From assembly GCA_030041135.1 (NCBI GenBank), contig JASHOL010000528.1, forward strand, positions 6,720 through 70,719: a stretch of DNA of 64,000 nucleotides. The letters run 5' to 3'. Source of the DNA: Streptosporangiaceae bacterium (GTDB lineage: Bacteria > Actinomycetota > Actinomycetes > Streptosporangiales > Streptosporangiaceae). A program made the position numbers and the translations under genes. The notes under the pieces were generated by a model. It was not told where the DNA came from. It saw only the letters and a list, made by a program, of their open reading frames with translations, and searched no databases. Below are positions 403-30,861 of the stretch, one piece after another. Position 1 is the stretch's first letter; the number at the start of each line of letters is the position of its first letter.

Positions 403-735
403 ATGGCAGCATCGGCATCGCGGCCACTGCGGCAGCCGGAACGTTTCGGGCGTCTGTGGTGGCTCCCCGGCGATGGCGAGGGCAACGGCCTTGACGACAC
501 CGGCTGGGCTCCCCTCGCCGTCGGCGACATCGCGGTCATCCGCGCCTTGATCGCGGAACTAGCAAGCGCGGGCGTGCCGGCTTTCGCCGCCCCCGTGACA
601 CGCCGTCCGCCCCGGCGCGGGAAACGTTCTGGCGCGGGTCGTTTCCAGCTGTGGGTCGGCACGAGCCGGTACAGCCGCGCCGAGGATGTCCTGCGCGTCA
701 AGCTCCCGGCGCTGCTGAGAACCCCGAGGTCATAG
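403..735 (+). CDS. Hypothetical protein (110 aa)
   Basis: ATG ORF with fairly high third-position G+C. No recognisable motif. Its 3-prime end overlaps the convergent HyfB-like gene by 6 nt. Confidence 0.3.
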   Translation: MAASASRPLRQPERFGRLWWLPGDGEGNGLDDTGWAPLAVGDIAVIRALIAELASAGVPAFAAPVTRRPPRRGKRSGAGRFQLWVGTSRYSRAEDVLRVKLPALLRTPRS

Positions 736-2748
736 GGCGACGATCAGATACGCGAGCAGCACGGCCACGAAGACGTACAGCAGGTACAGGTTGACGTCGC
801 CCGACTGGAGCGGGCGGACGAAGTCGGCCAGCCACTCGACCGAAGCGACCACGGGCCGGTACAGATACCGCTCGAACACGGGCGTGGCCTGCGACTCGTA
901 GTGCACGGGCCCGGACCGGCCCGCCGGGTCATCGGAGGCTCGCTCCAGCGAGACCGACGGCCGGTACAGCGCATCGAAGGTGACCCTGGTCGGCGCCGAG
1001 AACGTCATCGCCGAGTACTGCATGCGCGGCCTGAACGCGAGCATCCCGCCGTCCCACACCGGCACCACGGTCGAGCTGGCCCGCGGCCGGCCTGCCAGGT
1101 AGATAAGAGCGGGCACGACGAGGACGGCGAGCAAGAACACCGTGAGATAGGTCGGCGAGAAGCCGGAGAAGTTCGTGTGCGCCGGGATCACGGTCAGCTT
1201 GCCCGGCAGCAGGACGGGCCGCAGCGCGACTCCGGTCGCCGTGCGGATCGCCGTGGCCAGCCCCACGAGCACGACCGGCGCGCCCACGGCCAGGGCCACG
1301 CACGCGACGGCCAGCAACGCCGGCCCGGCGACCGGCTGGTCCGCCTCAGTGGCCGACGCGGCCTGCCGGGTACGCGGCATGCCGAGGTAGGGGATCCCGT
1401 ATCCGCGGACAAAGGCGTAGATCGCCAGCCCCCCGGTCAGCCCCAGCGTGGCGGCGGCGACCACGATCAGGATGGCCACCAGGTCACTGTGCGTGCGAAA
1501 GCCCTGGAAGAGGCCCTGGAAGATCAGCCACTCACTGACGAAGCCGTTCAGCGGCGGGAGCGCGGCGATGCCAAGTGTGCCGACGAACGCGATCACCCCG
1601 GCCCTCGGCATCGTCCGCGCCAGCCCGCCGAGCCGGTCCATGTCCCTGGTCCCGGTCGCGTGCTCGGTCACGCCGGCCTCCAGGAACAGCAGCGTCTTGT
1701 AGCAGCCATGGTTGAGCACGTGGTACAGCCCGGCCAGCAGCAGGAACGCCCACAGTGCGCGCTGGGAGTAAGCGAGGAAGGTCATCGCGGCACCGAACGC
1801 GGTCACGATGATGCCGATGTTCTCGATCGTCGAGAACGCGAGGAATCGCTTGATGTCCCGTTCCGCCATGGCGTACAAGATCCCGATGGCCGCCGTGAAC
1901 GCGCCCAGCCCCATCGTGACAATCCCGCGCCAGGCCGGGCCGTCGGGCAGCAGCCGGAACGCGAACAGCGCGATCCCGTAGACGCCAAGCTTGACGATCA
2001 GGCCGGACAGGAACGCCGAGCCGTCGGCCGGAGCGACCGGGTGCGCGGCAGGCAGCCACACGTGCAGCGGGACCAGGCCGGCCTTGAACCCGAACCCGGC
2101 CAGCGCAAGCAGGTAGGCGGTGTCGCGCCAGTCGGCGGGGACCCGGTGGGCGCGCGCGGCGATCACGTCGAGCGAAAGAGACCCGGTCTTGGCGGCCAGG
2201 ATGACGAAGGCAGCCACGATCAGCACGAATCCGGTCTCCGACAGAGCCAGGAACCAGAACGCCCCGCTGGCGACCTCACGGCTGCGCGGCTTGTGCAGGA
2301 TCAGCAGATAGCACAGCAGCGCCATTGACTCCCACGAGACCAGGAACGTCGTCACGCCGCCGGCCGCAAGCACGGCGATGCTGGCGATCAGCGCAAGATT
2401 GTAGGCGGCAAGGTACAGGTTTGCCTGCGCCGAAGTTTCCTTGCGGGAACGAGGTGTGTACAGCGCAATCGCCACCGCCACGATGCCGAGCAACGTGGCG
2501 AACACGCCGGCCAGGCTCGTGGCCTGCAGCTGCAGCGAGCCGACCACGGTCGATCCACCCGGCGATACGACCCTGGAGTTGCCGGCCAGCAGCGCGGCGA
2601 TCCCGCCAGCAAGAACGGCGATCCCGCCGATGGCCGACAGTCCGCAACTGCATCGCATCGCGGCGCTGACAGTGCCGGACAAGCCAGCCACGATCGCCGC
2701 GGCCGCCCAGGCGGCCGCGGCGGCACCGAACAGGATCAGGGCGGTCAT
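730..2748 (-). CDS. Ehr1 antiporter-like subunit, HyfB/NuoL family (proton-conducting membrane transporter)
   Basis: The internal ATG at 2748 (MTALILFGAAAAAW...) forms an ATGA overlap with the stop of the upstream small-subunit gene. Polytopic protein with NuoL/HyfB-like blocks (WESMALLCYLLI, GFKAGLVPLHVWLPAAH, FSTIENIGII). The ORF track extends to 2862, but the extra residues are Arg/Gly-rich and unlikely to be coding. Confidence 0.85.
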   Translation of the reverse strand: MTALILFGAAAAAWAAAAIVAGLSGTVSAAMRCSCGLSAIGGIAVLAGGIAALLAGNSRVVSPGGSTVVGSLQLQATSLAGVFATLLGIVAVAIALYTPRSRKETSAQANLYLAAYNLALIASIAVLAAGGVTTFLVSWESMALLCYLLILHKPRSREVASGAFWFLALSETGFVLIVAAFVILAAKTGSLSLDVIAARAHRVPADWRDTAYLLALAGFGFKAGLVPLHVWLPAAHPVAPADGSAFLSGLIVKLGVYGIALFAFRLLPDGPAWRGIVTMGLGAFTAAIGILYAMAERDIKRFLAFSTIENIGIIVTAFGAAMTFLAYSQRALWAFLLLAGLYHVLNHGCYKTLLFLEAGVTEHATGTRDMDRLGGLARTMPRAGVIAFVGTLGIAALPPLNGFVSEWLIFQGLFQGFRTHSDLVAILIVVAAATLGLTGGLAIYAFVRGYGIPYLGMPRTRQAASATEADQPVAGPALLAVACVALAVGAPVVLVGLATAIRTATGVALRPVLLPGKLTVIPAHTNFSGFSPTYLTVFLLAVLVVPALIYLAGRPRASSTVVPVWDGGMLAFRPRMQYSAMTFSAPTRVTFDALYRPSVSLERASDDPAGRSGPVHYESQATPVFERYLYRPVVASVEWLADFVRPLQSGDVNLYLLYVFVAVLLAYLIVAL

Positions 2749-3353
2749 GCCGGGCCGCCGGCGGTAAAGCTGAGGCTCGGTACCTTCTCGGCCAGCCGGT
2801 CCACGGCCACCAGCAGCCCGTGCAGCAGCGCCAGCGGGCTGGGCGGGCAGCCCGGAATCCACACGTCGACCGGCAGCACCTCTTCGGCCGACCCGTGACA
2901 GAAGGCGTCCGGCTGGTACACGCCGCCCAGCGCGCAGGCACCGGTCGCCACGACGATCTTGGGCGCCGGCATCGCGTCGTACGCCTTGCGGGCGGCAGCG
3001 GCGAAGGCCCGGAGCATGGGCCCGGTGACCAGCAGGAGGTCGGCATGCCGTGGCGCCGGCGTAAAGAAGAACCCGAGCCGGTGCAGGTCATAGTGCGGCG
3101 CCGCCAGCAGCCGGATCTCCTGCTCGCATGCCGCACACGAGCCGGTGTCCAGCGTCCGGATATGCAGGCTGCGGCGGAACTGGCTAGCGACGCGGCGGCG
3201 CAGCTCCTCGGCGGCAGCATCCGCACCGCGGCCCGGCGGCTCGCTCACCGTGTCTCCCGCTCGCCTCCGGGCCGCCTCAAGGCGGCGCCTTCCCTCGTCG
3301 CTCGTCCCTCGCTCCTCAGTCCAGGCGCCACCGCGGCCCGGCGGCTCGCTCAC
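2745..3353 (-). CDS. Ehr1 small subunit, HycG/NuoB family, with all four [4Fe-4S] Cys ligands retained
   Basis: Motifs GSCAACEQEI, TGACALGG and IPGCPPSP are present. The GTG start at 3353 overlaps the stop of the upstream gene (GTGA). An identical alternative GTG start context lies at 3248. Confidence 0.85.
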   Translation of the reverse strand: MSEPPGRGGAWTEERGTSDEGRRRLEAARRRAGDTVSEPPGRGADAAAEELRRRVASQFRRSLHIRTLDTGSCAACEQEIRLLAAPHYDLHRLGFFFTPAPRHADLLLVTGPMLRAFAAAARKAYDAMPAPKIVVATGACALGGVYQPDAFCHGSAEEVLPVDVWIPGCPPSPLALLHGLLVAVDRLAEKVPSLSFTAGGPA

Positions 3354-3697
3354 GGGCCAGCCTCCGGATCGTCGATGAGCGGTATCCGCTTGAGCAGCGC
3401 CTGCCTTGTCGTCGTGGCCAGCTCGAACTCGCTGCCCGGCGCGACGGCCTCGGGCGAGTGCTCACGGCACCAGCCGGCGACCGTGCACGCGCCAGCGTCG
3501 AAGACCAGCACGTCTTCCGATCGCGTGAGCGCCCGGCTCGGGCAGACTTGCACCAGGGCATCGGCGGCATGGCGGCTCAGCGCACCGGCGCGGAACGCCG
3601 GCGGGCCCGGCAGGTCGCGTGCGGATGGCTCAGGGCGGGCCGGGTACCGGGTAGTGACCACCCCCCGGCGCAGCCCCCGGATGAACCACTGCGGCAT
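3350..3697 (-). CDS. Ehr1 HycF/NuoI-like ferredoxin-fold subunit, Cys-depleted (3 of the canonical 8 Cys)
   Basis: The N-terminus GLRRGVVTTRYP resembles the HycF N-terminus. VCPSRAL keeps only the last Cys of the first motif. CTVAGWCREHSP replaces CxxCxxCxxxCP. A GAGAAGGGAG Shine-Dalgarno sequence precedes the ATG at 3697. Confidence 0.7.
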   Translation of the reverse strand: MPQWFIRGLRRGVVTTRYPARPEPSARDLPGPPAFRAGALSRHAADALVQVCPSRALTRSEDVLVFDAGACTVAGWCREHSPEAVAPGSEFELATTTRQALLKRIPLIDDPEAGP

Positions 3698-3728
3698 TGC
3701 TGGCGGCTCCCTTCTCTCGTACCTTCGC

Positions 3729-5306
3729 CTAGCGCGCCGTCCCGGCGACGGTCAGCCAGAAGCTGGCCTCGATGATCGGGATGTCGGTGAACACGTTCTG
3801 GGACCGGCACGCGTCGTCGAACCCGCGCCAGTTCCTGACGGCGGCCGGCCGCAGCCGGGCCCGGCTGATCCGGCCGGCCGCATCCAGCTCGACCCAGGCC
3901 AGGGACTCGCCACGCGAGGACTCGGCCCAGCCCAGGCCACAGCGGTGCTGGCCGTCGTCCGACCCGGCACAAACGCCCCCCGTGTCCGCGCTCTCTTTCG
4001 ATCGCACGTCCGCCGGCAACCGGTCACGGCCGCCGGATGCCGCGAGCGCGTCGATGAGTCGGACGGACTCGTCGGCCTCGGCCAGCATCACGCGCATGCG
4101 GGCGAGCGCGTCGCCTGCCGCCTGACTTGCGGCAACGGTCGGCAGCCCGATGTAGGCGCCGGAGGGATGGTCGGCGCGGGCATCGGCGCAGACTCCGCTC
4201 GCCCGCGCGACCGGGCCGACCAGGCCCAGGCGACCTGCTTCCTCGAAGGTCACGGTGCCGGTGGCCTCCAGCCGGTCGAGGAACGAGTTCGTGCTCAGCA
4301 GGGCGTCGCATGCCCGGCGCAGCTCGCCATATGCGGTCGGCAGGCCCTCGCGAAGCCGGACCAGGTCAGGAGTGGTGCGCGCGCCGCCAATCTCGACGAC
4401 TCCGAACAGGTACCGGTGGCCTAGAACCGCCGCGTTGAGCCGCAGCAACTGCTCAAGTGCGATCTCCGCGGCGGCGCGGCCGACGGCCAGGCCGCAGGCC
4501 TGGCACATGGCGGCGATGGCCGCCGCGTGGTTGTACAGACGCTCGAGCTCGAGCGCGATCGCCCTGGTCACCAGGGCCTCCGGCGCAGGTTCTGATCCCA
4601 GCGCGGCTTCGGCGGCGGCGGCGAACGCGCAGCTGTTGCCGACCGCGCCGAGTCCTTCGGCGCGCTCGATGTGAAACAGCGCCTGGTGCGGAGTCTTGCC
4701 CTGTGCCCGCCACTCGACGCCGCGGTGCTTGTGCCAGGTGAACAAGTACAGGTCGACGAGTTCCTCACCGCTGGTCACCAGGCCGTAGTACAGCGATTCG
4801 ACGCCGACCTGGCGGACCGGGCCGAACGGGAACTCGAACGCCTGCCCGCCGACGAGGTGCGGAGCGTGCACGTCCTGCGGCGGCTCCACCGGAGCCCGGC
4901 CCAGCCTGGGCAGCTCGATGTCGGATTGCGGCGGCGTCGCGACCCGGTTCAGCGGCTTGCCGCCAGTCGGCCTGATGCCGAACTGCTCGTAGATCTCGCA
5001 CTCCTCGGCGAAGGCAGCGGGCGCGATGTCCGACAGCGCCGGGTACCAGGGTCCGTCGACCTCAGTCTCGGTAATCAGGTACTGCTGGTCGTGGTCCAGC
5101 GCCCACACCATCCGCAGGATCACCGGGTCGGTGCCGGCCGCGAACAGGTCGGCGAGGCGGGCACCGGGGTGCTGCGCCAGTTCCGCGGTCACCACTTCCA
5201 GTTCGGCCGCGGCTACATCGGTGACCGCGACCGGTCCGGTGTCGATGTCCGCCCGGGTCATGACGGCGGCCCGCGGGCCCGCCGTATCCGGCCTGAGCGC
5301 GGTCAT
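3729..5306 (-). CDS. Ehr1 large subunit, HycE/NuoC-NuoD fusion type, lacking the Ni-Fe Cys ligands
   Basis: The N-terminal NuoC-like part contains ...ECEIYEQFGIRP. The NuoD/HycE-like body contains FPFGPVRQVGVES and WHKHRGVE. ERAEGLGAVGNSCAF occupies the place of the ER.CG.C...H motif. The C-terminus IIEASFWLTVAGTAR occupies the place of DPCxxCxxR. ATGA overlap with the upstream gene. Confidence 0.85.
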   Translation of the reverse strand: MTALRPDTAGPRAAVMTRADIDTGPVAVTDVAAAELEVVTAELAQHPGARLADLFAAGTDPVILRMVWALDHDQQYLITETEVDGPWYPALSDIAPAAFAEECEIYEQFGIRPTGGKPLNRVATPPQSDIELPRLGRAPVEPPQDVHAPHLVGGQAFEFPFGPVRQVGVESLYYGLVTSGEELVDLYLFTWHKHRGVEWRAQGKTPHQALFHIERAEGLGAVGNSCAFAAAAEAALGSEPAPEALVTRAIALELERLYNHAAAIAAMCQACGLAVGRAAAEIALEQLLRLNAAVLGHRYLFGVVEIGGARTTPDLVRLREGLPTAYGELRRACDALLSTNSFLDRLEATGTVTFEEAGRLGLVGPVARASGVCADARADHPSGAYIGLPTVAASQAAGDALARMRVMLAEADESVRLIDALAASGGRDRLPADVRSKESADTGGVCAGSDDGQHRCGLGWAESSRGESLAWVELDAAGRISRARLRPAAVRNWRGFDDACRSQNVFTDIPIIEASFWLTVAGTAR

Positions 5307-6796
5307 CCGAGTACCCCGATCGAGTGCGTGATCACGGTGCTCAGGCCGGCTGGTATCCAGAGGCCGAGCACGAGGAGGGCAGCCAGACCGACGGTGACAG
5401 GGGCTACAGCCGTCAGGCTGGCTGCCCGGCCCTGGTACGGACTGGCCCGGCCCGCTCCGGCCAGCCCGGCCACCGGCTCGCCGGTGGCCATGCCAGTGGT
5501 GGTCCTCGCGAACGCGATGAACGCGACCGCCAGCAGGAACAGGAGCAGCAGCGGCAGCACCGGGCTAGCGCCCGCGAACCCTGCCCTGACGATCGTGAGC
5601 TCGGACAGGAACAGGCCGAACGGCGGCGATCCCAGCACGGCGAAAGAGCCGAGCAGCAATGCTCCGCCGGTCAGCGGAACGGCGGCCAGCAGGCCGCGCA
5701 CCCCCGCCGCCTCCCTGGTGCCGGAGCGCAAGGCGATGTCGCCGCTGGACAAGAACAGCACGGCCTTGGCGATCGCGTGGTTCAGCGTGTGCAGCAGCGC
5801 CCCGTACAGGCCGAGCACGCCGCCGAAGCCGAGCGCCACCGCGATGATGCCCATGTGCTCGACCGAGGAGTAAGCGAAAAGCCTCTTGAAGTTGCCCCTC
5901 CGCACCATGAACAGCACGCCGATCACGATTGACAGGAAGCCGAACACCAGCAGCACGAGGCGGGGAAACTCGGGACCGAGGCCGGCCTTCGCGATCGCCA
6001 GGAACCGGATGATCGCGTACATGCCGGTGTTCAGCAGCGCTGCGGACAGCATCGCGCTGGCCGGGCTCGGCGCCTCCGCGTGCGCGTCCGGCAGCCAGGT
6101 ATGCATCGGTGCCAGCCCGACCTTCGTTCCGTACCCAACGACCGCGAGCAGGAACGCCAGCCGCAGGCTCGCGGGCGCCAGCGAGCGGGCATGCGCGAAC
6201 AGGAACGGCCAGGTCAGCCGCAGGTCAGGCGCGAGGTGGAGGGCGCTGGCGGAGTAGAACAAGAACAGCGTGCCGGCCAGCGCGATCGTCACGCCGAGCG
6301 AGCTGATGATCACGTACTTCCACGCTGCTTCCAGCGAGCTGGCCTTGCCCTCCAGGCCGACAAGCGCGGCGCTGGCCAGCGTGCTGGCCTCGATGAGCAC
6401 GAACAGGAGGCCAAGGTTCCCTGTCTCCAGCGAGGCCAGCATCAGGGCCGCGAACAGCCCGAAGAAGATGAAGTACAGCCGGACCTGGAAGCTCGTCAGC
6501 CGGCCGGCCGCCTCCTCGGCCGACAGGTAGCCGACCGACCCGACGGCGGCCAGCAGGGTCACGGCCGAGACCGTGAACAGGAAGAAGCAGCTGAGCGAAT
6601 CCACGTAGAGGTAGCCGCCGAGACCGCGCACCGGCACGCGGTGCAGCTGAGCCACGAGCAGCCAGACCGCGGCCGCCAGGGTCAGGCTCGCGCCCGCGGC
6701 ACCGCTCCAGCCCGCCACCCGGCCGCGAGCACCGGACGCCGCCGCTACCGTGCCTGCCAGCGGGCCGGCGATGATGATGAACGCCAGGACTGTCAT
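5303..6796 (-). CDS. Ehr1 antiporter-like subunit, HyfF/HycQ/NuoN-M family
   Basis: The internal ATG at 6796 (MTVLAFIIIAG...) forms an ATGA overlap with the HyfE-like stop. NuoN/M-like blocks GTKVGLAPMHTWLPDAHAEAP and YSSVEHMGII are present. The upstream part of the 694-aa track ORF is Arg-rich and likely spurious. Confidence 0.85.
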   Translation of the reverse strand: MTVLAFIIIAGPLAGTVAAASGARGRVAGWSGAAGASLTLAAAVWLLVAQLHRVPVRGLGGYLYVDSLSCFFLFTVSAVTLLAAVGSVGYLSAEEAAGRLTSFQVRLYFIFFGLFAALMLASLETGNLGLLFVLIEASTLASAALVGLEGKASSLEAAWKYVIISSLGVTIALAGTLFLFYSASALHLAPDLRLTWPFLFAHARSLAPASLRLAFLLAVVGYGTKVGLAPMHTWLPDAHAEAPSPASAMLSAALLNTGMYAIIRFLAIAKAGLGPEFPRLVLLVFGFLSIVIGVLFMVRRGNFKRLFAYSSVEHMGIIAVALGFGGVLGLYGALLHTLNHAIAKAVLFLSSGDIALRSGTREAAGVRGLLAAVPLTGGALLLGSFAVLGSPPFGLFLSELTIVRAGFAGASPVLPLLLLFLLAVAFIAFARTTTGMATGEPVAGLAGAGRASPYQGRAASLTAVAPVTVGLAALLVLGLWIPAGLSTVITHSIGVLG

Positions 6797-7467: not shown

Positions 7468-7470
7468 GGC

Positions 7471-8424: not shown

Positions 8425-8458
8425 AAGACCTCCACCTGGGCGGATCGTCCGTGCAGGT

Positions 8459-8505
8459 AGAGGCCATCAGCCGGGACTCCCCCGGCGTTACGCGAGCCTC
8501 ATCGC
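8459..8505 (-). promoter_or_regulatory. Conserved element copy a: AGAGGCCATCAGC-N20-GCGAGCCTCATCGC (plus-strand reading), 34 nt upstream of the Ehr1 operon start
   Basis: The two boxes are identical in all three copies (8459-8505, 9098-9143, 21615-21662). A TATGCT -10-like hexamer on the minus strand (8518-8523) lies 12 nt upstream of the element. Confidence 0.7.
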
Positions 8506-8568
8506 GTGATCTTCTTCAGCATACACAGCGCTAGGTCAGCGCGGAAGCCGCTATGCCTGGCAGGCCGG

Positions 8569-9045: not shown

Positions 9046-9097
9046 GTCGCCCGACTCAACGACAGCCTCCAGACTCCCGGCAACCAAAGGACTGCGC

Positions 9098-9143
9098 AGA
9101 GGCCATCAGCGACATTCTTCGCGGTTACGGCGAGCCTCATCGC
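9098..9143 (-). promoter_or_regulatory. Conserved element copy b: AGAGGCCATCAGC-N19-GCGAGCCTCATCGC, upstream of the USP gene
   Basis: Boxes identical to copies a and c. A GACAAT -10-like hexamer on the minus strand (9152-9157) lies 8 nt upstream of the element. Confidence 0.7.
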
Positions 9144-13856: not shown

Positions 13857-13859
13857 GTC

Positions 13860-15938
13860 TTAGTGCAGGCCAGTGACCAGCGCCAGGACGGCAATGAGCG
13901 CGATCAGCATGTAGGCCAGGTACGCGTCGAGGCGGCCCGACTGCAACCGCTGCGCTTGCCGCACCGCGAGCGCGAACGGCCGCCGGAAGGGCCGGTAGAA
14001 GTACTCCTCCGTGACCTCGATGACGTCGGAGCTGTACTCGACATGGGCTGCGGCCGCGCCGGCGTCCGGGTCCCTGGCATCATCACTGACCTCGAGCCTG
14101 GTGACCTCGGCTCGGGTGTGCAGGATGGCGGCGAGCACCCGCCGCGCGGGATTCGCGAAGGCGAAGGCGGTGTAGCTCGCACGTCCGGAGACGCCCGCGG
14201 TGGCTGAGCGCCAGGCCGGGACGCGGCGGACTCGCAGCAGGCGCCCCCCCGATGCGAGCCAGGCCAGCACGGCGACCACCGCGAACAGCGTCGGCATGAC
14301 GATCCAGAGCCACGAAGGCGACAGGATCGAGAAGCCGGCGTACACCGGTTGCAGCACCCAGGGCGACTTCAGCGCCGCTGTCACCGCGGCGGACGGCAGC
14401 ACCGGGACGAGCCCGGCACCGATCATCCTGATCTCGAGCGGTGCCAGCGCGGCCAGCGCCAGGCACGCAGCGGCGAGCGCGACGATGCCTGCCCGGCCGG
14501 CGAGACCGGGATCACCGTCGCCGCTGGCCGCCGCGCTTCGAGGCGAGCCGAGCACGACCAGGCCGACCAGCCGCACGAAGGTCACGCCCGCGAAGCCCGC
14601 GGTCAGCGCCACCGCCGCGCCGGTCACGGCCAGCACCAGCCGGTCAGCCAGCCCCGGCACCCGGAACTGCTGCATGAGCGCCTCGAGCAGGAACCACTCG
14701 GAGACGAAGCCTGCCGTCGGCGGCAGCCCGGCCAGCGTCAGGCTGCCGATCGCGAGTCCGGTGCCGCTCCAGGGCGTCCGCCGCACCGACCCGCGCAGGT
14801 CGTCCAGGTCATCCCGTCCCGCTGCGGCTTCGATTCCTGGGCTGGAGACAAACAGCAGCGATTTCGCCGCGGTGTGGGCGATGACCTGGAGAGTTGCGGC
14901 CAGCAGCCCCGCCGCCGTGAGGGCACGGCTGCCGGTAGCGGCGCCGACCAGGGCCACGCCGAATCCGGCCAGGATGAGGCCGGTGTTCTCCACGCTGGAA
15001 TACGCGATGACGCGCTGCAGGCTGCCCTGCACCGCGGCGTGGGCGATGCCGAGGACGGCGGTCATGCTGGCGAGCAGCAGCAGGACGTCGCTCACCGCAG
15101 CAGGGGGTGGGCCGAGCACGGCCAGCGTGCGCCACAGGCCGTAGAAGCCCACATTGACCGCAACTCCGGCCATGATCGCGCGCGCAGGTCCGGTCGCGGC
15201 GGCGTAACCGCGCGGCAGCCAGACCTGGAACGGGACCAGCCCGACCTTGACCGCGAAGCCCGCCAGCAAGAGCACGCAGGCGGTGGATCGCAGTGGTCCG
15301 TGGGCCACGTGGGCCAGGCCGGCCAGCGTCAGCGATTCTGACCTGGTGACCAGCAGGAGCAGGCCAGCGAGCAGAAACGCGCCACTTATGCGGCCGAATG
15401 CGAGCGTGACTAGCGCGGCCGCCGGACGGCCATGCGTGACCCGGCGGTAACCCGACAGCACCCAGAAGGCCAGCGTCAGCGACTCCCACGCAAACAGCAG
15501 CGTGAACGCGTCCCTCGCGGTGAGCACGACCGCGACCGAGCCGAGGGCGAGTGCGTACCCGGCGCCCAGGCCGCGGCGTCCTGGCCCGCTGGGGCCGATA
15601 GACCACGAGGCGAACGCGAGCGACACAGCCGCCGCCGCGGTGAAGGCGATCACGAGGAACAGGCCGGAGAGCCGGTCTGCGGCGAGTCCCGGAATCACGG
15701 AGAAGCCCGGCCGCGCGCCGATCGCCACGACTCCGAGCAACCCGCCGGACCTGAGCGCCACCGCCCGGCCCGCCAGGGCGGCGGCGCCGGCGACGGCCAG
15801 GCTCACCGAGCCGACGGTGCCTACCAGGTACGGTGCGGCCCGCCACGCCCGCCCCCGCGGCCCGGCTCCCAGGTCAGCCGCGGCCGCAAGGGCGAGCAGG
15901 ATCAAGCCGACGGCCAGCGCGACTCCGAACCCCGTCAT
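13860..15938 (-). CDS. Ehr2 antiporter-like subunit, HyfB/NuoL family
   Basis: ATGA overlap with the upstream gene. Contains WESLTLAFWVL, GFAVKVGLVPFQVWLPRGY and YSSVENTGLI blocks. Syntenic with 730-2748. Confidence 0.85.
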   Translation of the reverse strand: MTGFGVALAVGLILLALAAAADLGAGPRGRAWRAAPYLVGTVGSVSLAVAGAAALAGRAVALRSGGLLGVVAIGARPGFSVIPGLAADRLSGLFLVIAFTAAAAVSLAFASWSIGPSGPGRRGLGAGYALALGSVAVVLTARDAFTLLFAWESLTLAFWVLSGYRRVTHGRPAAALVTLAFGRISGAFLLAGLLLLVTRSESLTLAGLAHVAHGPLRSTACVLLLAGFAVKVGLVPFQVWLPRGYAAATGPARAIMAGVAVNVGFYGLWRTLAVLGPPPAAVSDVLLLLASMTAVLGIAHAAVQGSLQRVIAYSSVENTGLILAGFGVALVGAATGSRALTAAGLLAATLQVIAHTAAKSLLFVSSPGIEAAAGRDDLDDLRGSVRRTPWSGTGLAIGSLTLAGLPPTAGFVSEWFLLEALMQQFRVPGLADRLVLAVTGAAVALTAGFAGVTFVRLVGLVVLGSPRSAAASGDGDPGLAGRAGIVALAAACLALAALAPLEIRMIGAGLVPVLPSAAVTAALKSPWVLQPVYAGFSILSPSWLWIVMPTLFAVVAVLAWLASGGRLLRVRRVPAWRSATAGVSGRASYTAFAFANPARRVLAAILHTRAEVTRLEVSDDARDPDAGAAAAHVEYSSDVIEVTEEYFYRPFRRPFALAVRQAQRLQSGRLDAYLAYMLIALIAVLALVTGLH

Positions 15939-16750
15939 CGCGCGTCACCAGCCGCCGCTGACGTCAGCGGTCCGGCGCTTGCAGGAATCCGGCCCACCGC
16001 CGTCAGGAGCGCCGACAGAATCGCGAACGGGCTAGGCGGCGAGCCTGGCAGCCACACATCGACCGGCACGATGTCACCTACGCCGCCGCTAACGGCGTAG
16101 GACGGGCTGACGATGCCGCCGCCCACCGCGTCCGTCCCGACCGCGATGACCACCTTCGGATCGGGCATCGCGTCGTAAGTCTCGCGTAGCGGCCCGGCCA
16201 TGCCGCGCGCGCCCGCCCCGGTGACCAGCAGGATGTCGGCGTGCCGCGGGCTGGCCGTGAAGAACAGGCCAAGCCGGTGAATGTCGTACACCGGGTTGAG
16301 GAGCGCCATGATCTCCCACTCCTCGCTGCCGTCGGATCCAGCGTCGACGTGACGCAGGTGCACCGAACGGCGCAGGGCCCTCGTGCGGACGCGGAGCCGG
16401 TCGCTCACCTCACGGAGCGCGTCCGGGCTCTCGGCAGCCGGTACCACCAACTCCGGCCGGGTGAGCGTCGCGCGATGCGGGTCGGCCGACCAGGCGAAGA
16501 CGTCCGGCCGGGCGGCGACGCAGCGGCCGCAGAGGATGCACTTGCCCTGGTCGACGCGGATGCCACCATCCTGATCCGCGCTGATCGCATCGACCGGGCA
16601 CAGTCGCGCCGCCTCAGCCGCCGGGAGCGCGGCAGCGGCCGGGCCCGGCTTGACTGTTGCCGGTCCGCGCGTCGCGTTCGCGTAAACGTCCGGTCGTCCC
16701 GGCCATCCGGTCGTCAGGACGCCGTTGCGCAGTCCGCGCAAGACCCACAT
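15935..16750 (-). CDS. Ehr2 fused HycF-like ferredoxin domain plus HycG/NuoB-like small subunit; all NuoB-type Cys ligands are substituted
   Basis: The N-terminal part has GLRNGVLTTGWP, LCPVDAI and CILCGRCVAARP. The C-terminal part aligns to the Ehr1 small subunit but reads GSDGSEEWEI, VGTDAVGG and LPGSPPSP in place of GSCAACEQEI, TGACALGG and IPGCPPSP. Confidence 0.85.
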   Translation of the reverse strand: MWVLRGLRNGVLTTGWPGRPDVYANATRGPATVKPGPAAAALPAAEAARLCPVDAISADQDGGIRVDQGKCILCGRCVAARPDVFAWSADPHRATLTRPELVVPAAESPDALREVSDRLRVRTRALRRSVHLRHVDAGSDGSEEWEIMALLNPVYDIHRLGLFFTASPRHADILLVTGAGARGMAGPLRETYDAMPDPKVVIAVGTDAVGGGIVSPSYAVSGGVGDIVPVDVWLPGSPPSPFAILSALLTAVGRIPASAGPLTSAAAGDAR

Positions 16751-16765
16751 CTAATGCCTCGCCAT

Positions 16766-18253
16766 CTACCGGGCCGCCCCGGCCACGGGCAGCCCGAAGC
16801 TCGCCTCGATGAACGGGAAGTCGGTCAGGATGTCACCGGCGAATACCTCGTGCATCAGCACCAGGTTGTGGAACGCCGCCGGCCGCACCCGGCAGCGAGT
16901 GATCACGCCGCCCTCGATGCGCACGTCATACAGGAGCTCCCCCTGCGGTGCTTCAGCCCACCCGGTTGCACGTCCGTCCGCCTGGCCCAGGTCGGCGCGC
17001 AGCGGACCCGACCCGGCGTCGGCCAGCTCGTCGGCGGCCTGGCGGAGCAGGTGGACTGAACCGCCGATCTCGTCGACTCTGACTTCCAGCCGGGCCAGCG
17101 CATCGCCGTCCGAGCGCGAGCTAGTCGTCATGCCCAGCAATCCGTACGCCGCATAAGGCCTGGACTGCCGAATGTCCTCGCCAGCGCCCGACGCGCGCCC
17201 GATCGGACCGAGCGCGCGGTGCTCGGCTGCCCTGGCCGGGGCCAAGGGTCCGGTGCGGCGCAGGCGATCAAGGAATGACGCGGTGCCCATCAGCAGGTCG
17301 AGATCGGGTGTGATGCGCCGGTCCAGGTCGCCAATCGCGCCCAGCAGGTCAGGCGGCCCAAGCAGCGGCGGACCGCTGACGCCGCCCGGTACGACCAGGC
17401 CGCGGCCGAACCTGCTGCCCGACAGCTCGCCCGCTAGCCGCAGGACCCGCTCCTTGTGCCAGCCGAACCTGGCGGTCGCCACGGCCAGCCCGGCCCCGTC
17501 GGCCAGCCGGACGATGATGTCCAGATGACATGCCAGCCGCTCCAGCTCGGCCTGCGCGACCCGGATCAGCGACGCTCGCCAGGGCACATCCAGGCCCGCG
17601 ATCCGCTCGACCGCCTCGCAGAACGCGATCGCATTGGCGACCGACGCGACGCCCTCGGTCCGCTCGGCCAGCAGTACCCCGTCGGCCGGGCTCAGGCCCT
17701 CGAAGCGCTTCTCGATCCCGCGATGCTTGTAGAAGATCCGCATGTTCAGGTGCGGGATGTCCTCGCCCGGCGTCTCGACCAGGTACTCGATCGACTCGGT
17801 CACTCCCGACCGCACCGGCCCGTGCGGGATCGTGAACAGCCCCGGCCCGGCGGCATGGCGCGGCAGCACACCGGGATCGGGATCGATCGCAGCCGGGGCC
17901 GCGCCGCCTCCCGGCATCGGCAGATCCGTGCTACTGGTCGGCAGGACCAGCGGCTCTAGCCGCGGATGACCCTCAGGCACGACGCCGAACAGGTCGTGAA
18001 TCTCGCGCTCGTACCAGAACGCCGGCGCTACCTGAGGGGTAAGTGCCGGGTAGCGCACTTGATCGGACGGCAGCAACGCCTCGAGGCTGGTGATGGTTGC
18101 CCGGTCGGCCAGTTGAGCGGTGAGCACCAGCCCGTCGGGATGAGCGGTGGCGAACAGGTCAGCCAGCCGGCTGCCGGCCTCGATCTGGCGGACGACCAGG
18201 TGCCACAGCGCAGGGACGCTCGCGGCCAGCCCGGGCTCAGTGGCGGCAGTCAT
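16766..18253 (-). CDS. Ehr2 large subunit, HycE/NuoCD type, lacking the Ni-Fe Cys ligands
   Basis: The internal ATG at 18253 (MTAATEPGL...) forms an ATGA overlap with the HyfF-like stop. ERTEGVASVANAIAF and the C-terminal FIEASFGLPVAGAAR replace the two CxxC motifs. Contains FYKHRGIEKRFEG. Confidence 0.85.
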   Translation of the reverse strand: MTAATEPGLAASVPALWHLVVRQIEAGSRLADLFATAHPDGLVLTAQLADRATITSLEALLPSDQVRYPALTPQVAPAFWYEREIHDLFGVVPEGHPRLEPLVLPTSSTDLPMPGGGAAPAAIDPDPGVLPRHAAGPGLFTIPHGPVRSGVTESIEYLVETPGEDIPHLNMRIFYKHRGIEKRFEGLSPADGVLLAERTEGVASVANAIAFCEAVERIAGLDVPWRASLIRVAQAELERLACHLDIIVRLADGAGLAVATARFGWHKERVLRLAGELSGSRFGRGLVVPGGVSGPPLLGPPDLLGAIGDLDRRITPDLDLLMGTASFLDRLRRTGPLAPARAAEHRALGPIGRASGAGEDIRQSRPYAAYGLLGMTTSSRSDGDALARLEVRVDEIGGSVHLLRQAADELADAGSGPLRADLGQADGRATGWAEAPQGELLYDVRIEGGVITRCRVRPAAFHNLVLMHEVFAGDILTDFPFIEASFGLPVAGAAR

Positions 18254-19809
18254 GACGCCCGCCCGCTGAGGATCTCGACGGCCCGCAAGAACAGGTCGGT
18301 GAGCTCGGCTGGCGGATGCAGGCCGAGTACCAGCAGGGCCAGCACGCCCAGCGCGACCGGCACCACCATCCATGCGCTCGGTTCGCCGCGAGCCAGCGTC
18401 GGCGCGGCAGCACCAGACGCGGGAGCACTAGGACGGTCAGCCGCGGCCGTCGCGCTACCCGCCGTCACCAGCTGTCTAACGGGCCGATCGGATGGCCGTG
18501 CGGCGGGCAGCATTAGCATGCGCGTTGTCGAGGCGGCCAGGCCGAAGAATGCCACCGTGACCGCGATGATGAGAAATGCGGCGGTCGCGTAGCTACCCGA
18601 GCTCAGGCCGCCGGCAACGATCTCGAACTCGCTCCGGAACACGCCGAAGGGCGGCATTGCGCCGAGCGCGAAGATGGCGAGCAGGAACAGCGGCCCGCTC
18701 GACGGCAGCAGATCCAGGCCACCGCGGATGGAGTCGATCCGCTTCGTCCCGAACTTGCGCACGAACACGCCCGCACCCATGAACGCGTTGGCCTTAGCCG
18801 CGGCGTGCCCGAGCACATGCAGCAGGACGCCGGCCAGGGCGGCGGGGGCGCCAAAGCTGACCCCGATGGCCAGGATGCCCATGTGCTCCACGCTCGAGTA
18901 CGCGAGCAGCCTCTTGATATCGCGCTGACCGAACAGGTACAAGGCCGCGAGCAGCAAGGATGCGATCCCGAACGCAAGCAGCACCCCGCGCGGGAACGCC
19001 GGGCCGAGCGTTGCCGCCGCCACCTGGTAGAACCGGAGGATCGCGTAAAAGCTCACCGCCAGCAGCGACCCGGACAGCAGGGCCGACACCGGCGTCGGTG
19101 CTTCGGAGTGGGCGTCCGGCAGCCAGGTATGCAAGGGCACCAGGCCCATCTTCGTGCCGTAACCAACCACGGCCAGCACGAATGCCAGCTGCACCGCAGC
19201 GTGCGGCAGGCGCCGGGCGGCGGCCAGGAGCTGGGTGAAGCCGAGATCGTAGGACTGGCCGAGGACGTGCGCGCCCGCATAGTAGGCGAAGATCGTGGCC
19301 AGCAGCGCGAGGCCCAGCCCGGCCGACGCGAGCAGCACGTATTTCCATGCCGCCTCTGCTGCGCCGTCGGTGTCCTCGATCGCGACCAGCAGCGCCGAGA
19401 TCACGGTGGTGACCTCGATCGCGACCCACAGCAGCGCGAGGTTGCTCATCATCGGCGCGACCAGCATCGCCCAGGCGAACAGGTTCAGGCCCGCCCAGAA
19501 CTGGCGCGCCCGCCGGCCCTCCCGGCCCTCGTGCGCGGCGCCGCCCGCGTAGCCGACCGAGTAGATCGCCACGGTCGCGTAAAGGAACGAGGTGGCCAGC
19601 AGAAAGACCGCGCTGACCGCGTCGACCCGCAGCGCCCGCAGGTACTCAAGGTCGCCGTGCGCCGCCGTCGGCGTCAGCGCGATCACCAGCCCGAAGCATG
19701 CGATGCCGCACGCCGGGGTGAGCATCTTCGCGGCCCGGAGCGGTGCGCGCAGGCAGGCCAGGGCGGTCGCCAGCGGCAGCGCCAGCAGCAACAGCATCAC
19801 GGCGTGCAC
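18250..19809 (-). CDS. Ehr2 antiporter-like subunit, HyfF/HycQ/NuoN-M family
   Basis: Contains GTKMGLVPLHTWLPDAHSEAP and YSSVEHMGIL. GTG start at 19809; an ATG at 19797 is an alternative. Confidence 0.85.
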   Translation of the reverse strand: MHAVMLLLLALPLATALACLRAPLRAAKMLTPACGIACFGLVIALTPTAAHGDLEYLRALRVDAVSAVFLLATSFLYATVAIYSVGYAGGAAHEGREGRRARQFWAGLNLFAWAMLVAPMMSNLALLWVAIEVTTVISALLVAIEDTDGAAEAAWKYVLLASAGLGLALLATIFAYYAGAHVLGQSYDLGFTQLLAAARRLPHAAVQLAFVLAVVGYGTKMGLVPLHTWLPDAHSEAPTPVSALLSGSLLAVSFYAILRFYQVAAATLGPAFPRGVLLAFGIASLLLAALYLFGQRDIKRLLAYSSVEHMGILAIGVSFGAPAALAGVLLHVLGHAAAKANAFMGAGVFVRKFGTKRIDSIRGGLDLLPSSGPLFLLAIFALGAMPPFGVFRSEFEIVAGGLSSGSYATAAFLIIAVTVAFFGLAASTTRMLMLPAARPSDRPVRQLVTAGSATAAADRPSAPASGAAAPTLARGEPSAWMVVPVALGVLALLVLGLHPPAELTDLFLRAVEILSGRAS

Positions 19810-19812
19810 CGG

Positions 19813-20523
19813 CTATCCCCGCAGTCTGGTCAGGTCGGCGGTGGACATGGACTCGGCGCGGCCGTGATGCACGCGGATCAGCAGGCCGAACACGACGACC
19901 GCGACCAGCAGGTCGAATAGGAAGGCCACCTCCAGGATCAGCGGAAGCCCGGCCGCCACGACCAGCGCGGTGAGCGAGACGCCGTTTTCCAGCGACAGGA
20001 ACCCGATGGCCTGGGACACGACGTCCCGGCGGACGATCATGAGCACGAACGCGACCAGGATGACGGCCACCGAGACCGACAGCGCCGTCGCCGGAAGCAC
20101 CGGGCTGGTGATGCCGAGGGCTGCGACGGTGAAGAAGCCGAAGGCCGCCACCGCGATCGCGACCAGCACCGCGTTCGCCACGCTGAGCGCATGGCTGCCC
20201 GCGATGTCGCCCCAGCGCGGGTCGCCGCCGATCGCACCGATGCCGCGCAACAGCCTGCGCAGCACGACCGGCACGATCACGGCCTTGAGCGCGAACGACA
20301 GCGCCGCCAGGGCGTACAGATCCGGGAGGTGGCGGGTCGCGGCGACGACCACAGCCAGGACCGAGATCAGCGCCGACTGGGCCGCGTACAAGCGGACCTG
20401 ATCGCGCAGCAGTGCCTGCCTGAACATGCCGAACTCGGCCAGCAGCACGCCCACCGCGATGACGTTGGCACCACCGGACAGCGCGCTCGGCGCCGCCACC
20501 GTGGCCGCGATGACTCCCGACAT
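19813..20523 (-). CDS. Ehr2 HyfE/HycP-like (NuoK-type) membrane subunit
   Basis: The internal ATG at 20523 (MSGVIAATVAA...) overlaps the HycD-like stop (TGATG). Paralogous to 6793-7467. The upstream part of the track ORF is unlikely to be coding. Confidence 0.8.
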   Translation of the reverse strand: MSGVIAATVAAPSALSGGANVIAVGVLLAEFGMFRQALLRDQVRLYAAQSALISVLAVVVAATRHLPDLYALAALSFALKAVIVPVVLRRLLRGIGAIGGDPRWGDIAGSHALSVANAVLVAIAVAAFGFFTVAALGITSPVLPATALSVSVAVILVAFVLMIVRRDVVSQAIGFLSLENGVSLTALVVAAGLPLILEVAFLFDLLVAVVVFGLLIRVHHGRAESMSTADLTRLRG

Positions 20524-21485
20524 CACCCGCCACCCAGGTAGAGCGTGAACACCCCGAGCACCGCGAGCAGGAACGCGCCCGCGGCGAACTCGGTGATCTT
20601 GAACAGTCGCAGCTTGGCGAACGAGTTGTCGATCACTGCGATCACGACGCCGAGCAGGGCGGCCTTGCCGACAAGCGCCGCGATCGCCAGCAGCACGGGG
20701 ACCAGACCCGGGGTCGAGGCCAGGCCCCATGGCGCGACGAACACGTTGAGCAGGATCGTGAACAGGATCAGCTGCTTCATGGCCGAGCCCCACTTCAGCA
20801 GCGCGAAGTACGGCCCAGAGTGCTCGAACGGCCGGGCCTCCTCGATCATCCCGAACTCGTTGGTGCCCGTGTGGGTCTCGACCGGGATACGGGCCGTCTC
20901 GTAGAGAATCACCATGAACAGCGCCGCGGCGGCGAGCAGGTGAGCGGGCCGGATGATCTGCCCGGCGGAGGAGCGCACCGTGGCGGCCAGGGCGTAGGGC
21001 AGGTCGGTTCCCGTGACCAGCGCGACCGTGAACACGACGAACAGCACGACCGGCTCGGTGATCGCGCCGAATGTCTTAGCCCGGCTCGCGCCTAGCTGGG
21101 CGTACGGGCTGCCGGTCTCCAGGGCGGCCACGGCGACCAGGAAGCTGGCCAGCGAGAGGATGAAACCTCCGCCGAGGATGTCTCCCATGTAGCCAAGCGG
21201 CAGGCCGAATGTGGTGAGCACCGGGATCAGCAGCGGCACCGTCAGGTAGCAGGCCATAGCGCCCAGCGGCACGGCCAGGAACACCCAGCTGGAGCCCTCG
21301 GGGGCTAGCGCCTCCTTGCGGAAGAGCTTGGCCAGGTCGTAGTACGGCTGCAGGACGCGCGGCCCGGTCCTCCCCTGCAGCCGTGCCTCGACCCGGCTGA
21401 TCACGCCCGAGACACCAGGGGCAGCCGCCGCGATCGTCACGACCTGGAGCAGCTGGACGACGGGTATTGGCAGCGCCGGACTCAC
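20523..21485 (-). CDS. Ehr2 HycD/HyfC/NuoH-like membrane subunit
   Basis: Contains GRTGPRVLQPYYDLAKLFRKE and IPVETHTGTNEFGMIEEARPFEHSG. By-eye alignment puts it at roughly 45% identity to 7471-8424. Confidence 0.85.
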   Translation of the reverse strand: MSPALPIPVVQLLQVVTIAAAAPGVSGVISRVEARLQGRTGPRVLQPYYDLAKLFRKEALAPEGSSWVFLAVPLGAMACYLTVPLLIPVLTTFGLPLGYMGDILGGGFILSLASFLVAVAALETGSPYAQLGASRAKTFGAITEPVVLFVVFTVALVTGTDLPYALAATVRSSAGQIIRPAHLLAAAALFMVILYETARIPVETHTGTNEFGMIEEARPFEHSGPYFALLKWGSAMKQLILFTILLNVFVAPWGLASTPGLVPVLLAIAALVGKAALLGVVIAVIDNSFAKLRLFKITEFAAGAFLLAVLGVFTLYLGGG

Positions 21486-30855: not shown

Positions 30856-30861
30856 CGGGGC

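Follow-up and report, generated by a model that had tools for sequence, protein, structure and literature searches.

Two Hyf-derived, Ehr-type operons lacking Ni-Fe ligands lie behind predicted fluoride riboswitches in a Streptosporangiaceae bacterium

Two operons encoding Hyf-derived complexes without Ni-Fe ligands

The stretch of DNA analyzed here (the window; 64,000 nt, GC content ~70%) comes from a Streptosporangiaceae bacterium (contig JASHOL010000528.1) and contains 13 minus-strand genes that form two operons, operon 1 at positions 730-8424 and operon 2 at 13860-21485. Here we show that the complex-I-like complexes encoded by these operons are derived from Hyf-type hydrogenases and belong to the energy-converting hydrogenase-related (Ehr) type, that they are not hydrogenases themselves, and that both operons, as well as the universal stress protein (USP) gene between them, are predicted from their leader sequences to be preceded by fluoride riboswitches. 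Genes were identified with Pfam and NCBIfam, and the large subunits were aligned with HMMER to structures in the PDB. Orthologues were taken from 160 loci, 80 from genomes and 80 from metagenome contigs, each including 10 kb on either side of the match. The nearest relatives of the window are Streptosporangiaceae metagenome-assembled genomes (MAGs) of soil and peat origin, and the independent MAG GCA_030045055.1 is 98.9% identical to the window across 6.3 kb.

The two operons have a common gene order, in which HycD-, HyfE-, HyfF-, HycE-, HycF-, HycG- and HyfB-like genes follow each other (Table 1). A first-pass annotation of the sequence had already proposed this order, and the Pfam and NCBIfam assignments confirm it. 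That annotation had described the copies as fully syntenic; the order stands, but operon 2 does not contain separate HycF and HycG genes, the two parts being fused in a single 271-aa open reading frame (ORF), IB2. Operon 1 has a separate gene for each part; the two genes overlap and are read in different frames in 74 of 74 orthologous loci. The statement that nearly every junction is translationally coupled was slightly generous: 7 of the 11 junctions overlap (ATGA, GTGA or TGATG), and the remaining four are gaps of 3, 3, 15 and 31 nt. The identity between the paralogues is 48% for H (estimated before by eye at about 45%), 31% for K, 44% for N, 36% for CD, 48% for B and 33% for L. Both copies are maintained by selection, as had been argued from their intact frames. 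Purifying selection acts on each of the 13 genes, as judged from ratios of nonsynonymous to synonymous substitution (dN/dS) of 0.04-0.36, the H and K membrane subunits being the most strongly constrained (0.04-0.11), and the intact frames, the gene order and the translational coupling are retained in about 80 loci per operon type. On one metagenome contig (L095:1-4700), an extra set of CD1-, I1-, L1- and N1-like genes, whose order appears to be different, is located upstream of an operon-1-type cluster, which suggests that some genomes contain a third paralogous complex.

In the case of the large subunits, CD1 and CD2, the best match in the PDB is E. coli HycE (7z0s_E; E values of 8.5e-44 and 6.5e-36), which ranks above MbhL, NuoD and MbsL for both. 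The alignment places RVCGICG of HycE opposite ERTEGVAS in CD2 and ERAEGLGA in CD1, and the C-terminal DPCYSC opposite GLPVAG and WLTVAG, respectively. Tested against the ligand motifs of hydrogenases (RxCGxCxxxH for motif L1 and DPCxxCxxR for motif L2, not to be confused with the subunits L1 and L2), CD1 and CD2 lack all four Cys. The motifs quoted in the first-pass annotation are present in the translations, and its conclusion that all four Cys are missing in both copies is upheld by the alignment to HycE. The position of the first Cys is occupied by Glu in 81 of 81 CD2-type orthologues (E200) and in 83 of 83 CD1-type orthologues; the second Cys is replaced by Ala, Gly or Ser, the third by Ser, Pro or Thr, and the fourth by Gly. 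The motifs around the lost ligands are conserved, and free of Cys, in orthologues of both types. Since the replacing Glu is invariant across the orthologues, the loss of the Ni-Fe Cys is not a sequencing error and, with these four Cys absent, the complexes cannot be [NiFe]-hydrogenases.

The residues that contact quinone in complex I have been lost as well. Alignment of CD2 to Aquifex NuoCD (7q5y_B) places THG opposite VTE and DRMDY opposite ERTEG, so that the NuoD quinone ligands His38 and Tyr87 correspond to Thr and Gly; CD1 reads ERAEG at the latter site. The conservation of this His/Tyr pair had been left as a check by the first-pass annotation, and both residues turn out to be absent. Having lost both the Ni-Fe and the quinone ligands, the large subunits are, in the usual sense, neither hydrogenases nor quinone reductases. 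Within the 64-kb window, to which they were limited, Pfam scans of about 57 ORFs identified no hyp, hycI, fdh, crcB or CLC genes, in agreement with the earlier statement that maturation, endopeptidase and formate dehydrogenase genes are missing from the window. In the same scans, no HycB-, HyfA- or FdhF-like ORFs and no NuoE, NuoF or NuoG were found in the operons or elsewhere in the window.

The two copies differ in their iron-sulfur (Fe-S) sites. The small subunit of operon 1, B1, has retained the four Cys of the proximal (N2-type) [4Fe-4S] cluster, which are invariant in 76 of 76 sequences. In IB2 these Cys are replaced by D140, E143, D207 and S237, and the replacements are themselves conserved: D140 is found in 75 of 75 orthologues, E143 in 68 (the other seven have Asp), D207 in 72 and S237 in 69. 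The HycF-like parts of the I1 family and of IB2 both contain only a single CP plus CxxCxxC set, the distal HycF cluster having been lost in both, and the four remaining Cys of IB2 are invariant in 75 of 75 sequences. Judging from the ligation pattern of 2x[4Fe-4S] ferredoxin folds (Nqo9), we take this remaining set to be that of the N6b-type cluster adjoining N2. The window's own I1 deviates from its family, in that residue 74 (positions 3476-3478) is Ala in place of the middle Cys (C74A; CTVAGWC against the consensus CTACGRC). The middle Cys is present in 77 of 79 relatives and lacking in 1 of 78 other family members; the same change occurs in the independent MAG, which argues that it is real. 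A search with the small-subunit domain of IB2 against 1.84 billion representatives yielded 147 clusters with E < 1e-30. Among the best 150 clusters (50% identity), 69 carry all four Cys and about 55 are of the D[ED]D[S] type, indicating that the form without the cluster is a diversified family.

The machinery of the membrane arm is conserved. All four antiporter-like subunits (N1, L1, N2 and L2) have kept the Glu of transmembrane helix (TM) 5, the Lys of TM7 and the Glu of TM12, and the His/Lys of TM11 is also conserved. The Lys of TM8 is kept only in L1; N1 and L2 have Asn at this position, and N2 has Ala. K1 and K2 have retained the membrane Glu pair (conserved ..LENG.. and ..LILE.. in K2), and H1 and H2 the acidic loop before E(Y/H)SG. 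No MrpB, MrpE, MrpF or MrpG subunits were detected by Pfam in the operons, which encode only MrpA/D-like (Proton_antipo_M) and MrpC/NuoK-like proteins.

Comparison with known systems places these complexes as follows. The best NCBIfam matches are HyfB, HyfF, HyfE and the iron-sulfur subunit of formate hydrogenlyase (FHL), although all of them score below the curated cut-offs (HyfB 529 and 357 bits against 667, HyfF 391 against 610, HyfE 58 against 136, and the FHL iron-sulfur subunit 33 against 204). Together with the match to HycE, this points to a Hyf-type origin. The subunit order follows hyfC-E-F-G-H-I of E. coli hydrogenase-4/FHL-2 (hyfABCDEFGHIJ), to be compared also with FHL-1 (Hyc; 7Z0S), with hyfB moved to the end, and the HyfB-, HyfF- and HyfE-like subunits match along their full length. 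Unlike the Hyf and Hyc systems, the operons described here lack the Ni-Fe Cys, HyfA/HycB, HyfD and FdhF, have one cluster motif in the HycF-like part, keep the proximal cluster Cys in operon 1 but not in operon 2, and have no maturation genes in the window. Complex I (Nuo) shares the NuoH-, NuoK-, NuoL/M/N-, NuoB-, NuoCD- and NuoI-like subunits and the TM5 Glu, TM7 Lys and TM12 Glu; on the other hand, the operons lack NuoEFG and His38/Tyr87, and operon 2 also lacks the N2 ligands. The Pyrococcus furiosus Mbx/Mbs complex (6U8Y), a membrane-bound sulfane-sulfur reductase, is a group-4 relative that lost its Ni-Fe ligands and took on a new function while keeping ion translocation. Its chain 6u8y_L was matched at 1.9e-17 and 1.5e-06, much more weakly than HycE. 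The Mrp-type membrane module of Mbs is larger, three Fe-S clusters are retained in it, and it is not known to be linked to fluoride. Mrp antiporters differ in that the full MrpA-G set is not found here and that a NuoB/CD/I-like cap is present.

The closest fit is with the Ehr complexes, such as that encoded by Rv0082-Rv0087 of Mycobacterium tuberculosis, which have antiporter-like subunits and no Ni-Fe motif, as is the case here. PMC6349859, PMC10432482 and PMC6728331 describe them as relatives of group-4 hydrogenases without Ni-Fe ligands, with their function undetermined. The assignment to this class made in the first-pass annotation therefore fits the combination of group-4 large and small subunit homologues, NuoH-like and antiporter-like subunits, and missing Ni-Fe motifs. 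What sets the present copies apart from Ehr is that both are located behind predicted fluoride riboswitches and among fluoride-response genes, and that in operon 2 the ligands of the proximal cluster have been replaced by carboxylates.

Fluoride riboswitches and the surrounding genes

The leaders of both operons and of the USP gene share an element, GCGATGAGGCTCGC...AACCGC...GCTGATGGCCTCT, that Rfam identifies as the fluoride riboswitch RF01734 (crcB motif), for which the gathering score is 34 bits. The operon-1 copy is a variant with a shortened linker. In their sequence, their P1, P3 and pseudoknot, and their 5'-leader position, the aptamers fit the known fluoride riboswitch regulon. Several lines of evidence support this identification. 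First, a survey with an nhmmer profile built from the three window copies, which counted elements at most 450 nt upstream on the same strand in loci with sufficient upstream sequence, detected a riboswitch-like element upstream of the first gene in 65 of 66 operon-2-type loci and 44 of 44 operon-1-type loci (109 of 110 in total); in all 44 operon-1-type loci it lies 29-45 nt from the start codon. Second, the Rfam model itself passed its gathering score in eight of the nine operon-2 loci tested with it, including those of the cultured Micromonospora solifontis and Actinoallomurus acaciae. Third, the pairing is conserved. When P1, P3 and the pseudoknot were scored in 81 aptamers, 96.2% of the cells were paired, against 91.0% after shuffling (none of 500 shuffles reached as high a value) and 39-60% in slid controls, and double changes occupied 83 cells where 16.5 were expected. 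The pseudoknot is 99.8% paired, and in five sequences it changes from GAGGC/GCCUC to GAAGC/GCUUC. P3 covaries among the 46 distinct operon-1 copies.

The expression platforms of the two operons are different. In operon 1, a helix of 10-12 bp after the aptamer sequesters the Shine-Dalgarno (SD) sequence, GGAGG at position 8433: the 3' strand of the aptamer runs on into CCUCUACCUG, the complement of CAGGUGGAGG at the ribosome-binding site. The helix is kept in the 46 distinct copies, in one of them with a compensatory change, and the minimum-free-energy fold of the leader pairs GGCCUCUACCUG with CAGGUGGAGGUC (z = -3.3). In operon 2, the 3' part of the aptamer pairs with the SD sequence and the start codon of a short leader ORF. 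Such ORFs, 15-70 codons long, are present in 56 of the 66 operon-2-type loci; most of them contain an EPPG[KN]D motif and have a stop codon overlapping the start of H2 (GTGA or ATGA). Ribosomes stall strongly at PPG, a motif that depends on EF-P. The leader ORF could provide a second regulatory layer or encode a small subunit. The fold of the operon-2 leader is no more stable than that of shuffled sequences (z = -0.4), so that its expression platform is deduced from the conserved pairing, identified by eye, and from the leader ORF, not from folding energy. The USP gene shows the same coupled arrangement as operon 2, with a leader ORF of its own behind its riboswitch.

Based on these structures, the three switches would work as follows. 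As long as fluoride is absent, the aptamer's 3' strand (GGCCUCU...) would pair with the ribosome-binding site. Once fluoride is bound, as a Mg2+-fluoride complex (PMC11139923), this strand would be locked into the pseudoknot and the ribosome-binding site would be freed; in operon 2 the freed site would be that of the short leader ORF, which is translationally coupled to H2. Fluoride binding is thus predicted to turn translation on.

The fluoride regulon has been reported to include crcB, enolase, pyrophosphatase, mutS-like, USP and 'formate hydrogen lyase' genes (PMC2864571, PMC11139923). The location of the crcB motif upstream of 'formate hydrogen lyase' and mutS genes was described in 2010 (PMC2864571), and the genes most commonly associated with the riboswitch include those for Na+/H+ antiporters and 'formate hydrogen lyase' (PMC11139923, PMC2864571). 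The operons described here belong to this fluoride gene neighbourhood. Among the fetched loci, a riboswitch-like element precedes a USP gene in 15 places (that of the window included), a MutS-domain-V-like gene in 10, an inorganic pyrophosphatase gene in 4, a NUDIX gene in 2 and an enolase gene in 1; it also precedes DUF3040-like genes in about nine places, which were named by eye, the one tested having no Pfam family. Recurrent neighbours of operon-2-type loci are MutS-like genes (24 loci), dynamin-like GTPase genes (22), enolase (19), USP (13) and CrcB plus DUF190 (13). The neighbourhood as a whole therefore comprises USP, MutS_V-like, pyrophosphatase, enolase, NUDIX and CrcB plus DUF190 genes. 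We also searched for a redox partner by clustering all flank ORFs of 80 loci, disregarding several 'families' that were antisense artefacts of high GC content at third codon positions; no dehydrogenase or ferredoxin was common to the flanks.

More distant relatives, which were found via small-subunit representatives, have retained the H-K-N-CD-IB-L order and likewise lack the Ni-Fe Cys. One of them (loci L167 and L168; GC content 44%), which is probably non-actinobacterial, has two tandem RF01734 aptamers, scoring 55 and 40 bits and separated by about 40 nt, directly upstream of the operon, and keeps all three Fe-S motifs. The tandem aptamers are contained in L167:2411-4392 and L168:280-437, where a third aptamer precedes small ORFs and DUF190/CBS genes. 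A second relative, L165 (GC content 56%), has a small subunit of the DIDD type and only sub-threshold aptamers (31.9 and 23.4 bits). At L163/L164 (GC content 44.5%) an aptamer was not found, and the neighbouring genes encode a USP, a dynamin-like protein and two MutS_V proteins. The dynamin-like and MutS-domain-V-like families also recur near the operons in L163, L164 and L167.

Table 1. The two operons, their leaders and adjoining genes in the window
Feature	Position	Strand	Description
L1	730-2748	-	HyfB/NuoL-like, antiporter-like; NCBIfam 'hydrogenase 4 subunit B' 529 bits over residues 5-670, cut-off 667
B1	2745-3353	-	HycG/NuoB-like small subunit; Pfam Oxidored_q6 1.2e-22
I1	3350-3697	-	Truncated HycF-like; NCBIfam FHL iron-sulfur subunit 5.4e-08
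CD1	3729-5306	-	HycE/NuoCD-like large subunit without Ni-Fe ligands (ERAEGLGAVGN ... FWLTVAGTAR)
N1	5303-6796	-	HyfF/NuoN-like, antiporter-like; NCBIfam 'hydrogenase 4 subunit F' 391 bits, cut-off 610
K1	6793-7467	-	HyfE/NuoK-like membrane subunit; NCBIfam 'hydrogenase 4 membrane subunit' 9.9e-16 over 14-224
H1	7471-8424	-	HycD/NuoH-like membrane subunit, operon 1; Pfam NADHdh 8.3e-31; dN/dS 0.04-0.06
Predicted variant fluoride riboswitch aptamer, operon 1	8451-8515	-	RF01734 32.8 bits, local E 1.9e-07; 27 nt upstream of H1
USP gene	8569-9021	-	Pfam Usp 5.1e-19; immediately precedes operon 1; GTG at 9021 is the probable start
USP leader ORF	9018-9059	-	13 codons; behind the USP riboswitch; TGA stop overlaps GTG at 9021
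Predicted fluoride riboswitch aptamer, USP leader	9090-9153	-	RF01734 46.9 bits; upstream of the USP gene preceding operon 1
L2	13860-15938	-	HyfB/NuoL-like, antiporter-like; NCBIfam 'hydrogenase 4 subunit B' 357 bits over full length, cut-off 667
IB2	15935-16750	-	HycF-like part fused to HycG/NuoB-like part; one ORF, 271 aa
CD2	16766-18253	-	HycE/NuoCD-like large subunit without Ni-Fe ligands (ERTEGVASVAN ... FGLPVAGAAR)
N2	18250-19809	-	HyfF/NuoN-like, antiporter-like; Pfam Proton_antipo_M 1.9e-48
K2	19813-20523	-	HyfE/NuoK-like membrane subunit; 31% identity to K1
H2	20523-21485	-	HycD/NuoH-like membrane subunit, operon 2; Pfam NADHdh 2.7e-31; dN/dS 0.04-0.09
Operon-2 leader ORF	21482-21574	-	30 codons (MVSETNEPPGEDTT...); between riboswitch and H2; stop overlaps H2 start (GTGA)
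Predicted fluoride riboswitch aptamer, operon-2 leader	21607-21672	-	RF01734 41.6 bits; 122 nt upstream of H2
MutS-domain-V-like ATPase, C-terminus	3-392	+	64% identity to the L053 representative (Pfam MutS_V); convergent with operon 1
Dynamin-like GTPase	21747-23483	-	Just upstream of the operon-2 riboswitch

Other genes in the window were also inspected. Between the two operons, a 409-aa ORF (9638-10867, plus strand) contains several CPxC/CxxC motifs and has no Pfam match; a homologue of it is located directly behind a riboswitch-like element in two related loci. Operon 2 is followed directly, on the other strand, by a gene for a 295-aa protein (12969-13856, plus strand) that consists of about four internal helix-turn-helix repeats (LYV...GLS...). 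The region 23695-28865 encodes a transporter of the amino-acid-permease family with a C-terminal OB-fold domain, adjoined by a sensor kinase (DUF4118, HisKA and HATPase domains) and a response regulator, which we read as KdpD/KdpE-like. The stretch at 29600-35100 has a markedly lower GC content (57-65%, against about 70%). Its genes code for a methyltransferase resembling cyclopropane-fatty-acid synthase, an alpha/beta hydrolase, a fatty acid desaturase and a DUF998 protein, and the stretch may be an island for lipid modification that was acquired by horizontal transfer. There are no tRNA genes in the window.

Possible roles of the two complexes

The first-pass annotation had stated that no function has been shown for the Ehr class. 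This can now be narrowed, as both operons, and 109 of 110 related loci, have a riboswitch-like element in front of them, and the conditions that it proposed, hypoxia and general stress, give way to fluoride as the signal to which the sequence points. Fluoride stress has been tied to acidification of the cytoplasm, caused by the entry of hydrogen fluoride (HF) at low pH, and to loss of the proton-motive force, on which the export of fluoride depends (PMC11139923), so that extra ion translocation induced by fluoride would make sense. With a confidence slightly better than even, we therefore favour the view that both complexes are fluoride-induced ion translocators that protect the cytoplasmic pH and the membrane potential. 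At low external pH, HF would diffuse into the cell and release H+ and F-; export of the F- would turn HF entry into a proton-importing cycle, by which the cytoplasm would be acidified and the membrane potential drained. The two complexes would be made on demand, expelling protons and restoring the potential. They would do so with the complex-I-like core that they have kept, formed by a NuoH-like, a NuoK-like and two antiporter-like subunits and a NuoCD/NuoI/NuoB-like cap, after the Ni-Fe site, the distal HycF cluster and the formate dehydrogenase/HycB input module of a Hyf-type ancestor had been lost.

How such translocation might be driven probably differs between the copies. The first-pass annotation regarded both as ion-translocating redox modules; translocation fits our reading, but redox chemistry cannot be assumed for both, because operon 2 lacks the ligands of the proximal cluster and the distal HycF cluster has been lost in both. 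Operon 1 would have a two-cluster wire, formed by the N6b-like cluster of I1 and the N2-like cluster of B1, and a soluble donor of low potential could thus supply it with electrons, which would pass to an acceptor in the former Ni-Fe pocket. Therefore, the complex of operon 1 may be redox-driven. In operon 2, the lack of the proximal cluster means that electrons cannot be transferred to the former Ni-Fe pocket, and this complex is probably not redox-driven; it is more likely a non-redox, Mrp-like cation/proton translocator, a regulated variant, or a binder at the carboxylate site.

Several observations weigh against a role of both complexes as fluoride-induced translocators. First, the role in fluoride tolerance is deduced from regulation and gene neighbourhood. 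Second, the proposed pump lacks the NuoD quinone ligands as a route for its energy supply, and no conserved gene for an electron donor or acceptor was found beside the operons among the flank ORFs of the 80 loci. Third, three of the four antiporter-like subunits have lost the TM8 Lys, which may mean that proton transfer is altered or reduced. Fourth, the operon-1 aptamer, at 32.8 bits, scores slightly under the Rfam gathering score of 34, and among the distant relatives L163/L164 have no detected aptamer and L165 only weak ones. Finally, the window's own copies may be atypical: I1 of this lineage is without one of its four Cys, and residue 207 of CD2 (positions 17633-17635) is Asn where 80 of 81 relatives have His (H207N).

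It is conceivable, though we consider it unlikely, that the complexes handle fluoride directly, a cap without cofactors and the membrane arm together binding or moving F-, HF or an Mg-F complex. A site for a hard metal or an anion would then be provided by the Asp/Glu/Asp/Ser residues of the operon-2 small subunit and by the Glu that is invariant where the Ni-Fe site used to be. The strict control of both operons by predicted fluoride riboswitches speaks in favour of this, as does the fact that the acidic substitutions are conserved instead of reflecting random loss (D140, E143, D207 and S237, and E200 in 81 of 81 sequences), the D[ED]D[S] pattern recurring in about 55 of the nearest 150 clusters at 50% identity; moreover, the riboswitch itself binds fluoride through Mg2+ (PMC11139923). 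However, the proteins contain no known fluoride-binding motif, and the Fe-S ligands are retained in operon 1 and in the L167 relative, both of them under the same switch, so that loss of the cluster is not needed for the link with fluoride. In addition, CrcB is encoded beside the operon in 13 loci, so that a dedicated exporter is already there, and an un-energised carrier of HF or F- would be of no net benefit.

The view of the first-pass annotation, that these are general Ehr-type redox-driven ion pumps of energy metabolism, serving for instance in hypoxia or redox balancing, a role proposed for M. tuberculosis Rv0082-Rv0087, seems to us quite unlikely; fluoride would then be just one among several inducers. 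It agrees with the known features of the Ehr class, with the USP gene upstream, as found in stress and dormancy regulons, and with operon 1, which keeps its proximal (N2-like) ligands and whose family keeps the second cluster, in I1; and the M. tuberculosis homologues (Rv0082-Rv0087) are regulated by Rv0081 (PMC6728331). Nevertheless, the one conserved regulatory feature is the riboswitch, operon 2 lacks the proximal cluster, and a partner dehydrogenase is not conserved nearby. A DosR-type box, GGGACNNNNGTCCC, was examined as a candidate regulatory site and rejected, since only two matches with one mismatch were found where 5.3 are expected by chance, neither of them near the operons.

A genuine formate hydrogenlyase or hydrogenase that supports a fermentative shift under fluoride, as suggested by the database names 'formate hydrogenlyase subunit 5' and 'Ni,Fe-hydrogenase III large subunit' and by statements in PMC2864571 and PMC11139923, is extremely improbable, being refuted at the sequence level by the absence of the four Ni-Fe Cys from every orthologue examined, and disfavoured also by the absence of FdhF, HycB, Hyp and HycI genes from the operons and the window and by NCBIfam scores that are all under the curated cut-offs. 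Hardly any weight can be given either to the idea that the operons are decaying relics of a hydrogenase operon without a current function: cofactor ligands have been lost, and C74A in I1 and H207N in CD2 are specific to the window, but the dN/dS values of all 13 genes, the conserved layout in about 80 loci per type, and the conservation of the replacement residues and of the riboswitches argue against decay.

Implications for the Ehr family and the fluoride response

Ehr complexes have been catalogued for more than 10 years, in actinobacteria including M. tuberculosis, in nitrifiers and in candidate phyla, with no function assigned, and 'formate hydrogen lyase' has been listed with fluoride riboswitches since 2010 and explained as a fermentation switch. 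The kind of complex described here is thus already familiar under two names, Ehr and riboswitch-associated 'FHL'. Three points appear to be new: the recognition that the two are the same, in that the riboswitch-linked 'formate hydrogen lyase' genes examined are of the Ehr type, the cluster-less carboxylate variant, and the paired arrangement under three riboswitches. Our literature search found no link between Ehr, hydrogenase or NADH dehydrogenase genes and fluoride riboswitches, although it did not cover key subscription papers, in which a prior mention is possible. The fluoride literature has taken 'formate hydrogen lyase' to be an enzyme that oxidises formate and produces H2, and its association with the riboswitch has been read as a metabolic shift (PMC11139923). 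The copies described here cannot be such an enzyme, and for the genes examined the assumption of H2-producing enzymes in the fluoride-resistance literature is corrected.

The riboswitches and the gene neighbourhood narrow the function of these complexes from 'unknown' to 'part of the fluoride response', and the Ehr complexes thereby gain a concrete, testable inducer and phenotype, namely fluoride at acidic pH. The pair present in the window offers a natural comparison, as the proximal Fe-S cluster is kept in one copy and replaced by carboxylates in the other under the same predicted signal, and cultured carriers are available in Actinoallomurus acaciae, Micromonospora solifontis and Amycolatopsis species. 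A further, speculative proposal, to which we attach a small probability, is that the operon-2 type represents a new functional class in the complex I superfamily, induced by fluoride and operating without redox chemistry, in which a carboxylate site formed by the Asp/Glu/Asp/Ser of the small subunit and the invariant Glu of the large subunit would bind protons, Mg2+ or Mg-fluoride and be coupled directly to ion movement through the antiporter-like arm. If this were true, it would be the first complex-I-like assembly to have an inorganic anion stress, and not an electron pair, as its substrate.

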